Shown piece by piece: positions 1 through 51,052 of a DNA stretch of 64,000 nt. How positions within the stretch are numbered: the stretch's first letter is position 1; each line of letters opens with the position of its first letter. The notes under the pieces were generated by a model. The model was not told the origin of the DNA, made no database searches, and was given only the letters and a program-made list of their open reading frames with translations. This DNA is from Patescibacteria group bacterium. GTDB lineage: Bacteria > Patescibacteriota > Patescibacteriia > UBA2591 > UBA4787. Location of the stretch: contig JAQUSN010000002.1 in NCBI GenBank assembly GCA_028715115.1, forward strand, positions 132,944 to 196,943, written 5' to 3'. A program made the translations under genes and the position numbers.

Positions 1-174
1 CGAGAGTATCCTTGGTTACGACTTAGGATAGAGTGGTTTATAGGCGCTTCAAAAATGAAGTTACTTGGTGTAGGACGTTAAGGCATTTTAGATGTCGAAT
101 AAAATACAGCCCTAAATTCATCAACAATACGAATAAAGGGTAGTGATATTGACAGCATTCTACATAATCGTAAC

Positions 175-295
175 GCCAATGGCAATCTGTGCGTGCGCTA
201 CCTCTATTGGAATGGCAGCAGGTGGAGCTGGAACTACAACTGGCTTGACAACAACTTCAACGACAACAATCCGGCGCTGCTTCGCAACTCACTTC
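175..295 (+). repeat. DGR template repeat (TR) candidate. AAC/AAT-codon-rich tract: tgg aac tac aac tgg ctt gac aac aac ttc aac gac aac aat ccg gcg ctg ctt cgc.
   Basis: A run of AAC/AAT codons in one frame is the adenine-rich signature of DGR template repeats. It translates to the W-N-x-N style of C-type-lectin-fold variable regions. It is locally GC-rich relative to the genome. No ORF enters it from upstream; the frame is open from nt 103 but has no Met or start context. It lies directly beside the Avd-like and RT genes. Confidence 0.6.
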
Positions 296-704
296 ATTTC
301 TTCTCCCGATTCAGCTCGGGAGAAGTTTCTTTTAATAAATTACGGTGCCAACCGCCAAGCATTTTACCAATTTCATTAAGCGGTTCAGAGATAGCCAGAT
401 ATTTTTTGTTATCCAGCGACTTGATTAGCCAGGCAATTTGGAGAAAAAATTTTAGCAAGTCAAATCGGCTGACTGCTTTTTGCACATAAGGCAATTTCTT
501 GTCTTTGGGTAAATTTCCGGCGGTAAAAATTAACTCGATTACTTCGACGAATGTCGAATCAATTTTTGCACCCAAAGTAAAGCGTGATGTTTTGGGCAAG
601 TGTTGAACAATTTCGTGCCATAATTTGTAAGTTCCGATTAATCTATCTATGATTGGAAGGGTATTTAAAGCGGGGGGGGGGCAATTAAAGGAAGAATTTT
701 TCAT
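294..704 (-). CDS. avd: Avd-like four-helix-bundle accessory protein (DGR accessory variability determinant / 23S-rRNA-IVS four-helix-bundle family).
   Basis: From about residue 15 the product is all-helical. Its pattern (K.W..h...P....LG..I...V..A....K..Y...A..S...L...L.IA...K.L....Y..I...L.EIGKML.GW) matches the four-helix-bundle/Avd family. It is adjacent and divergent to the RT. The N-terminal 15 residues and the ATG at 704 are uncertain. Confidence 0.6.
   Translation of the reverse strand: MKNSSFNCPPPALNTLPIIDRLIGTYKLWHEIVQHLPKTSRFTLGAKIDSTFVEVIELIFTAGNLPKDKKLPYVQKAVSRFDLLKFFLQIAWLIKSLDNKKYLAISEPLNEIGKMLGGWHRNLLKETSPELNREKK
301..326 (+). promoter_or_regulatory. Perfect 9-bp stem-loop (cttctcccg / cgggagaag, 8-nt loop) immediately 3' of the AAC-rich repeat.
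   Basis: Seen directly in the sequence. GC-rich hairpins abutting DGR repeats are known to act in cDNA priming and homing. Whether this marks a TR or a VR end cannot be decided from sequence alone. Confidence 0.45.
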
Positions 705-1707
705 AAAAATTAAGTTAGATATTAAATTTAGTCAAATTACCGATTTAGAGAATTTACTCGAAGCCTGGCGAGAGTTTTTAAAGGGTAAAAAGAAAAAACC
801 TGATGTTGCGCTGTTTCAAAGGAATTTAATAGACAATATTTTTTCTTTACGCGACGATTTAATTAGCCGTACCTACAGGCACGGCGCTTATCAAGCTTTT
901 AATATTTCTGATCCTAAGCCAAGAAATATTCATAAAGCCACGGTGCGCGACAGGGTTTTACACCGTGCTATCTATCGTCAGCTTTATTCATTTTTTGATC
1001 GAATCTTTATCGCCAGTTCGTTTTCTTGTCGTCTTGGCAAAGGAACGCATCGAGGGCTTAAATATTTTCAATCCAATGGTTATAAAGTGAGTAAAAATAA
1101 TACCAGAACCGCTTGGATCTTAAAATGCGATATTAAGAAATTTTTCGCTAGCGTTGACCATAAAGCCTTGCTTAAAATTTTAGCCCAATATATTACCGAT
1201 CAAGATGTTTTATGGTTGCTCAAAGAGACTGTTGGCAGTTTTGAGAACAAGCCAAAAATAGGATTGCCGTTAGGCAATTTAACTTCGCAACTTTTTGCCA
1301 ACGTTTATCTTAACGAATTTGACCAATTTGTAAAACATAACCTAAAAGTTAAATATTATCTGCGCTATGCTGACGATTTTGTTTTACTCTCTGAAGATAA
1401 AAACTGGCTCGAGGGTCAGATTCCTCATCTTAAAACATTTCTTTCTGAAAGGTTACGCTTAACCATGCACCCACGAAAAATTTTTCTTAAAACCCTTGCT
1501 TCGGGTGTTGATTTTCTGGGCTGGGTTAATTTTTTCCACCATAGGGTGGTTAGGACGAGCACTAAAAAGAAGCTAACCAAGAGAATTAAAGCAAATCCGA
1601 CCAAAGAAACCATTGCTTCATATTTGGGATTATTGAGCCACGGGAATACATATAAATTAAAAAAGAAAATTAGACTGGCGGATAAATTCAAAAAAGACGG
1701 TGCGTGA
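649..1707 (+). CDS. DGR-type reverse transcriptase.
   Basis: RT motifs are present: YADDFVL (motif 5) and LPLGNLTSQLFANVYLNEFD (motif 4, with the SQ signature that, as far as I recall, marks DGR RTs). The N-terminus (NLLEAWREFLKGKKKK) is typical. At about 350 aa it has no maturase or endonuclease domain. A TR-like repeat and an Avd-like gene are adjacent. Confidence 0.8.
   Translation: MIGRVFKAGGGQLKEEFFIKIKLDIKFSQITDLENLLEAWREFLKGKKKKPDVALFQRNLIDNIFSLRDDLISRTYRHGAYQAFNISDPKPRNIHKATVRDRVLHRAIYRQLYSFFDRIFIASSFSCRLGKGTHRGLKYFQSNGYKVSKNNTRTAWILKCDIKKFFASVDHKALLKILAQYITDQDVLWLLKETVGSFENKPKIGLPLGNLTSQLFANVYLNEFDQFVKHNLKVKYYLRYADDFVLLSEDKNWLEGQIPHLKTFLSERLRLTMHPRKIFLKTLASGVDFLGWVNFFHHRVVRTSTKKKLTKRIKANPTKETIASYLGLLSHGNTYKLKKKIRLADKFKKDGA
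672..681. repeat. G10 homopolymer inside the overlapping 5' coding ends of the RT (reads KAGGGQ) and the Avd-like gene (reads CPPPA).
   Basis: Ten consecutive G in an AT-rich genome. It sits in codons 8-11 of both divergent overlapping ORFs. Confidence 0.9.
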
Positions 1708-1727
1708 GCAATCCGTCTTTTTTTTAT
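1692..1727. terminator. Bidirectional intrinsic terminator shared by the RT (+) and thrS (-): A-run, hairpin aagacgg/ccgtctt, then T8.
   Basis: Stem-loop flanked by an A-run and a T-run between convergent genes. The RT stop codon lies in the loop. Confidence 0.6.
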
Positions 1728-50812: not shown

Positions 50813-50821
50813 GGGGGGGGG
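50813..50821. repeat. G9 homopolymer (preceded by cccc) in an intergenic region.
   Basis: Seen directly in the sequence. Confidence 0.9.
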
Positions 50822-51052
50822 TTATTTTATTTCGACTGATTGGTCGGTGGTGACTGCTTTGGCTTCTACGATTGACCAAATTTTGAAATATTGGGTCGTA
50901 AACCAGATGCCGAAAAGGAAAATCATAACAACCAGAATCGTGAGAATGATAACGGCTAAACTGGAGTCCATGGGTTTATGCCACCAGCCATAAGATGAAC
51001 CGACAATGCTTGGATACTTAGTACTGCGATAGTCCCCGCTTCCAAAGGTCAT
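50822..51052 (-). CDS. Small hypothetical single-TM protein (76 aa) upstream of the M23 peptidase gene.
   Basis: ORF with a central hydrophobic helix. Weak. Confidence 0.3.
   Translation of the reverse strand: MTFGSGDYRSTKYPSIVGSSYGWWHKPMDSSLAVIILTILVVMIFLFGIWFTTQYFKIWSIVEAKAVTTDQSVEIK

Follow-up and report, generated by a model that had tools for sequence, protein, structure and literature searches.

A Patescibacteria locus with the features of a CPR-type diversity-generating retroelement: leader RNA, template repeat and a G-tract at the avd/RT junction

Introduction

A reverse transcriptase (RT) gene, a divergent gene for an Avd-like protein and a tract rich in AAC and AAT codons stand together at the start of the window, i.e. 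the whole 64-kb stretch of Patescibacteria DNA analysed here. Do these parts make up a diversity-generating retroelement (DGR), and if so, where is the variable repeat (VR) that corresponds to its template repeat (TR), and what else does the locus conserve? DGRs of the TR-(avd)-RT type have reportedly been described from CPR/Patescibacteria by Paul et al. in 2017. In the CPR, DGRs make up about 80% of RTs (PMC8632793), and architecture B3, TR-(avd)-RT, accounts for 90% of CPR DGRs (Wu et al., 2018, PMC5758913). The finding of a DGR by itself thus changes nothing, DGRs being the dominant RT class in the CPR and the layout here being standard. We set out the layout alongside two further features of the locus: a structured RNA that precedes the TR and a homopolymeric G-tract at the junction of avd and the RT.

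Results

Organization of the locus

The part of the element inside the 64-kb window spans 49-1707 and consists of the leader, the TR, avd and the RT gene (Table 1). This is almost certainly the template-and-enzyme half of a chromosomal CPR-type DGR of architecture B3, the target gene with its VR lying just outside the window. The preliminary description had already recognized a DGR, and this is borne out by the motifs of the RT, the match of its neighbour to the bAvd profile and a TR/VR pair that differs only at adenines. The same description regarded the placement of avd on the strand opposite to the TR and RT as unusual. This does not hold: in its published definition B3 has TR and RT on the same strand and, between them, avd on the opposite one, and the same arrangement recurs in every related locus with upstream DNA, the Avd homologues keeping their place, divergent from and adjoining the RT, in about 70 loci. 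In the related loci the TR lies just beyond the 3' end of avd and the VR another 237-441 nt upstream, where it forms the 3' end of an ORF of roughly 180-270 aa; the TR/VR mismatches of these loci are adenine-specific, with 9-24 at A and mostly 0-1 at other bases.

Table 1. Features of the locus, in positions of the window
Feature	Position	Strand	Remarks
Structured leader RNA	49-168	+	109 nt, directly 5' of the TR; covariation, covariance model R1
P1 long-range helix, 5' strand	53-61	+	AAAUGAAGU; pairs with 291-299 and encloses leader and TR
Leader helices	P2 68-79/154-165; P3 83-86/92-95; P4 109-113/137-141; P5 116-118/132-134	+	RNAalifold, 32 loci
Template repeat (TR)	167-287	+	121 nt, 13 AAY codons; limits set by alignment to the VR
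P1, 3' strand	291-299	+	ACUUCAUUU; immediately past the TR end, within the conserved post-TR motif AACTCNCTTCATTT
avd (accessory variability determinant)	294-704	-	136 aa; divergent orientation to the RT, with a 56-bp overlap between the avd 5' end and the RT ORF
Terminator-like hairpin and T-rich tail	300-335	+	10-bp stem 300-309/316-325, 6-nt loop; overlaps the last avd codons on the other strand
DGR reverse transcriptase	649-1707	+	352 aa from ATG 649; RVT_1, LGNLTSQ, YADD
G10 homopolymer	672-681		PPP in avd codons 9-11, GGG in RT codons 9-11; conserved simple-sequence tract
Probable RT terminator	1694-1726	+	hairpin 1694-1700/1713-1719, 12-nt loop with the RT stop codon, then a T-run; read from the sequence

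The CPR B3 DGRs of Wu et al. (2018, PMC5758913) present the same order, target(VR)-spacer-TR-avd (opposite strand)-RT, and likewise a small target protein without a Pfam domain, a C-terminal VR and a Patescibacteria host. A Pfam search of the target proteins of relatives recovers no domain in nine of ten. There is no essential difference from these systems, the peculiarities here being an ATA codon where the RT homologues start and an RT ORF that runs 18 codons further upstream through the G-tract; we regard the locus as a further example of a known DGR type in a Patescibacteria host. The prototype, the DGR of Bordetella phage BPP-1 (mtd-avd-TR-brt), shares a GxxxSQ-containing RT with an Avd four-helix-bundle partner, the adenine-specific transfer from TR to VR, and a target gene that encodes a C-type-lectin-like protein and has the VR at its 3' end. 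It differs in its avd, which lies on the same strand upstream of the TR, whereas avd here is on the opposite strand between TR and RT.

The reverse transcriptase and Avd

The RT ORF contains the motifs RYADDF and LGNLTSQ and matches Pfam RVT_1 with 80 bits. Against solved structures its best match is the 328-aa RT 8ub7, at an E-value of 2.6e-40, as opposed to 1.8e-17 for a group II intron RT; given its length, we take 8ub7 to be the RT of the Bordetella phage DGR. An (I/V/L)GxxxSQ motif in RT motif 4 defines the DGR RTs (PMC3521204), and this motif, the YADD and the gap between the two E-values uphold the earlier assignment of the enzyme to the DGR type. The best match in NCBIfam, which holds no DGR-RT model, is to the group II RT/maturase TIGR04416, at 131 bits against a cutoff of 300. 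The divergent 136-aa ORF, previously described as Avd-like, passes the cutoff of the Pfam bAvd profile (54.8 bits; cutoff 40) and stands just under that of NCBIfam DivGenRetAVD (72.7 bits; cutoff 80).

The start of the RT homologues, with the consensus N-terminus MKIQL... in the relatives, aligns to codon 703-705, which is ATA in the window. The RT needs the upstream ATG at 649, from which it is read through the G-tract. In same-species variants with a run of 12 Gs the frame from ATG 649 is broken, and gene callers give an RT of 254 aa. The probable RT terminator is missing from the list of the terminator scan because its loop is longer than 8 nt.

Template repeat, variable repeat and target gene

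The tract of AAC/AAT codons that the preliminary description had placed at about 175-295 is real, and its limits are corrected to those in Table 1. The statement that no ORF covers it is right in essence, with the qualification that it shares sequence with two mechanical ORFs that start at GTG (143-379 and 193-489); the frame equivalent to that of the VR is indeed stopped upstream, at 79-81 and 100-102, and no gene runs in from that side. Within the 64 kb, as had been noted, there is no VR: an ungapped scan of both strands gives a best candidate with 49 non-adenine mismatches in 121 nt, and the TR itself is the sole match in a tblastn search of the window with the target protein.

The suggestion that the VR might lie upstream of the window proved correct. 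Four contigs of the same species (L084-L087) agree with window 1-671, or with a longer stretch, at 99.5-100% and extend upstream, and on all of them a second copy of 167-287 is found 505 nt upstream of the TR, at 219-339 bases before position 1. Its position rests on these contigs and a matching protein record rather than on the window's own upstream DNA. The VR is thus absent from the window because the window cut falls between VR and TR. The two repeats show seven differences in 121 nt, all at TR adenines (184, 200, 212, 220, 250, 254 and 259), so that 7 of the 33 TR adenines are changed in the VR. A 172-aa ORF has the VR as its final 40 codons, and its TAA stop stands 2 nt past the repeat. 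This settles the identity of the tract in favour of a TR, as originally proposed: the copy in the window holds the adenines, and the upstream copy holds the substitutions, in frame at the end of a gene.

Both repeats close with the GC-rich CCGGCGCTGCTTCGCAA, beyond which their sequences part at once; IMH and IMH*, which in DGRs lie at the ends of the VR and the TR, often with an inverted repeat following IMH, have no functional definition in this clade. About 35 nt after the VR there is a GC-rich inverted repeat, read by eye, with a terminator further on. Searched as an A-to-N pattern, the TR gave no match in the genome contigs, itself included, and a sole match in the metagenome contigs, which is an unrelated GC-rich VR of the same target family (L083).

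A covarying leader RNA clamped to the 3' flank of the TR

The region directly 5' of the TR encodes a structured RNA with compensatory changes in 28 of its 30 pairs (RNAalifold, 32 loci). Across the alignment 93% of cells are paired, compared with 41-56% in slid controls, and none of 500 shuffles reaches the observed value. The covariance model R1 scores the leader of the window at 91.9 bits and, searched against 1.2 Mb, returns 76 matches at E <= 0.01, one full-length match per DGR locus, of which 75 end at the start of the TR. A further, long-range helix, P1, joins the beginning of the leader to the 3' flank of the TR: 88% of its cells are paired versus 46-55% in slid controls, it shows 20 double-sided changes as against 0-2 in the controls, and again 0/500 shuffles reach the observed value. 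Both the MFE and the centroid fold of window 45-336 contain P1. A rival local hairpin in its place, 47-51/56-60, is paired in 55% of cells and does no better than shuffles, 153 of 500 reaching the observed value.

The hairpin after the TR is present and perfect, as reported before, with a stem of 10 rather than 9 bp, and is among the intrinsic-terminator-like sites of a consensus scan. In 53 of 64 loci such a hairpin with a T-rich tail begins 0-20 nt (typically 11-14) beyond the TR, with 52 distinct sequences whose stem pairs covary, and it is likely the 3' end of the TR RNA.

At gathering thresholds, Rfam yields no match in the window or in L086 and nothing relevant in 14 relatives. The best Rfam match of the leader is RT-16 (RF03019; window 47-168; 23.2 bits, E 0.44, gathering score 50), one of the Rfam 'RT' motifs, which are candidate structured RNAs beside RT genes (Weinberg et al., 2017, PMC5737381). 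The leader aligns with RT-16 end to end and shares with it AUAAAAUACAG and the 3' CUACAU, but lacks the 14-bp hairpin that RT-16 has at its 5' end. Such sub-threshold matches are inconsistent between loci, the relatives giving no RT-16 or a weak RT-7. In BPP-1, bRT-Avd is recruited by the structured RNA of the spacer 3' of the TR, and the priming adenosine also comes from this spacer (PMC12875486). A structured RNA beside the TR is common to the two systems, but the domain lies 3' of the TR in BPP-1 and 5' of it here, where the TR is followed by about 12 nt and the terminator, and where the 5' domain is tied to the TR 3' flank by P1. We found no report of a covarying leader with a P1 clamp in DGRs in the searchable literature, and Wu et al. 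(2018, PMC5758913) make no mention of a leader RNA, a P1 clamp or a G-tract.

A conserved G-tract at the avd/RT junction

Of about 79 loci whose sequence covers the site of the G10 tract, 73 have a run of 6-14 Gs at it and three more have (GA)n or (CT)n instead. Across 1.15 Mb of related loci, runs of at least eight Gs are found 69 times at the avd/RT junction and 10 times elsewhere. Within the species, the window and L087 share a G10 tract, and L084 and L085 have G12 instead; L086 stops just before it, L001 begins with 17 G, and two same-species contigs found via ThrRS end inside the RT or at the run. In two other species its length is constant (G10 in six contigs, G9 in four), and no rapid change in tract length was seen in these species, which were sampled several times. 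The start codons that precede the tract show no preference for any of the three frames (22:21:26). The usual RT start follows the tract at a distance of 8-20 nt, for which reason a role at the RNA level or in a promoter is equally possible.

These features recall the phase-variable poly-G/C contingency loci of Neisseria and Campylobacter: a G/C homopolymer of 7-14 nt is placed inside the 5' end of a reading frame, its length varies from locus to locus and also in one species, between two strains, and in a few loci a dinucleotide repeat stands instead. The resemblance has its limits in that on/off switching is here at most a possibility, and in that the tract keeps a constant length in each of the two other species. 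In the searchable literature we found nothing relevant on a conserved G-tract, a homopolymer or phase variation in DGRs.

Discussion

By the most likely mechanism, a promoter upstream of the window would drive a short non-coding RNA comprising the 109-nt leader, the TR, the 3' strand of P1 and the terminator hairpin. The RT-Avd complex would bind this RNA and copy the TR into cDNA, misincorporating opposite template adenines, and the cDNA would then replace the VR, thereby recoding up to 13 Asn (AAY) codons and other adenine-containing codons. The recoded region would be the C-terminal domain of the target protein, with a C-type-lectin-like fold. The leader together with P1 may play the role of the 3' spacer of the Bordetella phage DGR.

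It is possible, though we would sooner expect otherwise, that the DGRs of this CPR clade are phase-variable mutators gated by the G-run or the GA and CT repeats, and that their template RNA is a permuted Bordetella phage DGR RNA with a 5' domain clamped by P1. As a phase-variable device, slippage of the repeat, in DNA or in the transcript, would decide whether full-length Avd and, in this species, also the RT are made. As a permuted RNA, the template would carry its protein-recruiting and priming domain 5' of the TR, clamped to the TR 3' end by P1. Were this reading true, the junction tract could be a switch for hypermutation. The template RNA (leader, TR, P1 and terminator), which like the tract belongs to a non-coding anatomy common to about 75 loci, would let the priming model of the Bordetella phage be tested on a differently arranged RNA.

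Among the other explanations, it is scarcely conceivable that the AAC-rich tract is itself the VR, or that the RT is a group II intron or retron enzyme with an incidental repeat beside it. The polarity of the TR/VR pair rules out the former, even though mechanical ORFs overlap the tract: adenines are in the window copy, and substitutions are in the upstream copy, which closes a real gene in frame. A group II RT/maturase does head the NCBIfam matches, well short of its cutoff; yet the E-value of 8ub7 is 23 orders of magnitude below that of the group II RTs, avd adjoins the RT, no intron or retron RNA family was detected, and the enzyme has GxxxSQ, not the QGxxxSP of group II RTs (PMC3521204). 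Only slightly less improbable is that the avd-RT junction with its G10 is an assembly join created by poly-G sequencing artefacts, and the gene order unreal. Independent same-species contigs break exactly at the run, one ending before it and another starting with its 17 Gs, and the run length differs between assemblies. Against this, three contigs (L084, L085 and L087) run across the junction between identical flanking sequences, and the same order with a G-run at the site in 73 of about 79 loci comes from many studies and includes the closed genome CP066687.1; we reject the artefact on this conservation across loci.

A more serious alternative, still an unlikely one, is that the element is a DGR by descent which is now silent or decaying in this organism, a fossil with a frozen VR. 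The four same-species contigs, from at least two samples, all have one and the same VR, and there is therefore no sign of ongoing diversification in this population; moreover, the VR departs from the TR by only seven adenine substitutions, the canonical RT start codon is ATA, and the G12 length variants break the frame from RT ATG 649. Decay is less easily reconciled with RT and Avd ORFs that are unbroken in the window and retain every catalytic and DGR motif, with a TR that retains its 13 AAY codons, and with a leader RNA that keeps its high score under R1. The confinement of all TR/VR differences to adenines indicates, in addition, that retrohoming has taken place since the repeats were last identical, and a relative whose architecture is the same shows diversification from sample to sample. 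We favour the view that the DGR is presently active in this organism. The clade is active: between the relative CP066687.1 and Logan contigs, 19 of 19 differences in 4,002 bp fall in the VR at TR-adenine positions, as do both of the two differences seen in a third sample.

A DGR cut between its repeats

The locus is an ordinary diversity-generating retroelement (DGR) of the CPR type, correctly recognised from the sequence, and the window edge cuts it between the variable repeat (VR) and the template repeat (TR). In CPR bacteria DGRs make up about 80% of reverse transcriptases (RTs) (PMC8632793). All the components described at the outset are present in window 1-1727: the RT, a divergent ORF for the accessory protein Avd, the AAC/AAT-rich tract and the hairpin. 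The profile searches agree with these assignments: the Avd ORF passes the Pfam family and falls just under the cutoff of NCBIfam DivGenRetAVD (72.7 bits against 80), and the RT has as its closest solved structures the 328-aa RT of 8ub7-8ube (E = 2.6e-40), with group II intron RTs far behind (1.8e-17). We take 8ub7 to be the DGR RT of a Bordetella phage.

Features of the DGR and its template RNA in the window
Feature	Position	Strand	Evidence or remark
RT ORF, 352 aa	649-1707	+	motifs LGNLTSQ and RYADDF; Pfam RVT_1 match
Avd ORF, 136 aa, divergent	294-704	-	Pfam bAvd, 54.8 bits (cutoff 40)
AAC/AAT-rich tract	~166-290	+	sequence
Perfect 10-bp hairpin with T-rich tail, after the tract	300-309/316-325	+	
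Template RNA, leader	49-168		conserved in clade
Template RNA, P1 3' strand	291-299		conserved in clade
Template RNA, terminator-like hairpin	300-335		conserved in clade

The arrangement was compared across 80 related RT loci (52-63% identity). Every locus that has upstream DNA encodes an Avd homologue on the other strand, which touches or overlaps the start of the RT; hence the opposite-strand Avd is not the unusual arrangement that the preliminary description took it for. In these relatives the TR lies just past the 3' end of avd on the RT strand, and further upstream an adenine-mismatched VR closes an ORF of about 180-270 aa at its 3' end. Wu et al. describe this order, TR-(avd)-RT, as architecture B3 and assign 90% of CPR DGRs to it (PMC5758913).

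The variable repeat, its target gene and variation in the clade

When both strands of the 64 kb were scanned without gaps, the tract had no adenine-mismatched counterpart. The proposal that the tract is a TR whose VR lies upstream of the window start is borne out by four contigs of the same species (L084-L087), reached through an Avd homology search as near-identical proteins in other assemblies. At 99.5-100% identity these contigs cover at least window 1-671, and all continue upstream, where each of the four holds a second copy of window 167-287 at a distance of 505 nt. The two copies differ at exactly seven positions (184, 200, 212, 220, 250, 254 and 259), each an adenine in the copy that lies in the window. 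The upstream copy supplies the final 40 codons of a 172-aa ORF, whose stop lies 2 nt beyond the copy. Since all differences fall on adenines of the window copy and the upstream copy ends this ORF, the former is the TR and the latter the VR. Placed from these contigs, the VR begins 339 bases and ends 219 bases ahead of window position 1, and 384 nt separate its end from the TR start, within the 237-441 nt seen in relatives.

A protein identical to the 172-aa target (record P0241) is recorded on a contig of 308,640 bp, which is also the length of the longest contig for the records of the RT (P0001, 100% identity) and of the source's own Avd call (P0125); from this shared length we infer that the target gene lies on the window's own contig. 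The target gene (L086 886-1404; ~214-732 bases before the window) has 56% G+C; the window has 37.6%, and RT and avd 36-38%. Upstream of its ribosome-binding site (L086, ~780-900 bases before the window) sits an inverted repeat, long but imperfect (GGTCATAGCCAGAA ... TTCTGGCTATGAC); it matches no Rfam family and may be a structured 5' region.

The variation itself was followed in a relative with a closed genome (CP066687.1) and several Logan assemblies. Two samples show 19 differences in 4,002 bp, all 19 in the VR at TR-adenine positions; both differences in a third sample are of the same kind, and TR, avd and RT are unchanged between samples. Because the VR of the window's species is identical in all four contigs, L084-L087, the sequences show retrohoming in its past and not current activity.

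A conserved structured leader in the template RNA

A specialist could take an interest in only two parts of this locus: the template RNA, with its conserved leader, long-range helix P1 and terminator, and the repeat at the avd/RT junction. Distant relatives share a 20-nt motif with window 47-70, some 105 nt ahead of their TR. For 32 loci aligned from the motif through the hairpin after the TR, RNAalifold predicts a multi-helix leader with compensatory changes in 28 of 30 pairs; P1 (window 53-61 with 291-299) was added on the basis of complementarity. With P1 included, 93% of cells are paired (41-56% in slid controls) and 33 of 39 pairs show double-sided changes, values that none of 500 shuffles reaches. 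For P1 alone the paired share is 88% (controls 46-55%), and double-sided changes number 20 where the controls have 0-2. A local hairpin competing with P1 does not stand in the pair-count test. Folding window 45-336 as a single sequence recovers the same helices.

The covariance model of the leader, R1, gives one full-length match per DGR locus (76 at E <= 0.01 in 1.2 Mb, more than 40 of them in loci outside the model-building set). Except for one weak extra match, all end at a TR start; the score for window 49-168 is 91.9 bits. Throughout the clade, each TR has a conserved, covarying leader on its 5' side. In 53 of 64 loci the TR is followed, after 0-20 nt (typically 11-14), by a hairpin with a T-rich tail, in 52 distinct sequences. 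No Rfam family reaches threshold for the leader, the best being a weak resemblance to RT-16 (23.2 bits against 50), and Rfam results on the relatives' leaders are inconsistent between loci. In one relative (L026, 7729-8356) the leader RNA occurs a second time (85.4 bits), as does avd, whose extra copy has a G11 run of its own; the RT is not duplicated in this 21-kb locus.

In Bordetella phage the RNA spacer 3' of the TR is structured; it recruits bRT-Avd and provides the adenosine for priming (PMC12875486). Here, in contrast, the structured domain lies on the 5' side of the TR, and P1 ties it to the TR's 3' flank. We infer that this domain together with P1 would play the role of the phage spacer.

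A G-tract at the avd/RT junction

The avd and RT 5' ends overlap by 56 bp, within which lies a G10 run (672-681). The window's species has G10 (window, L087) or G12 (L084/L085) here; one contig stops just short of the run and another begins with 17 G, so that the lengths in this species are 10, 12 or at least 17. Of about 79 related loci whose sequence covers this site, 73 have a G-run of 6-14 nt at it, and three more (L013, L037, L056) have (GA)n or (CT)n in its place. Runs of at least 8 number 69 at the junction against 10 elsewhere (1.15 Mb). The avd frame reads the run as PPP(P) just before helix 1, and the usual RT ATG follows the run by 8-20 nt. In the window's species, L087 included, the RT codon at 703-705 is ATA where homologous RTs have their start ATG, so that a full-length RT needs ATG 649, reading through the tract, or a non-canonical start. 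On the avd side, only 22 of 70 loci have a canonical start codon ahead of the tract that shares the avd frame (frames 22:21:26), about two thirds being out of frame, and in some 14 loci a canonical start is missing altogether up to Avd residue 30.

This pattern would fit a slippage-dependent switch or recoding site. Against this, two other species showed no change in tract length over repeated samples, and homopolymer lengths taken from assemblies are prone to error. The searchable literature held no mention of the tract. Many metagenomic contigs of the clade, among them L001, L086, L006, L010, L021, L038 and L080, end at or beside the G-run or within the 5' end of the RT, and homopolymer and TR/VR repeat together appear to break short-read assemblies of this DGR clade repeatedly.

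ARAGORN and Rfam found no tRNA or other RNA gene in window 1-64000. The only other G/C run of at least 7 in the 64 kb is a G9 at 50813-50821, which abuts the stop codon of a 76-aa ORF (50822-51052, minus strand) that looks like a small membrane protein.
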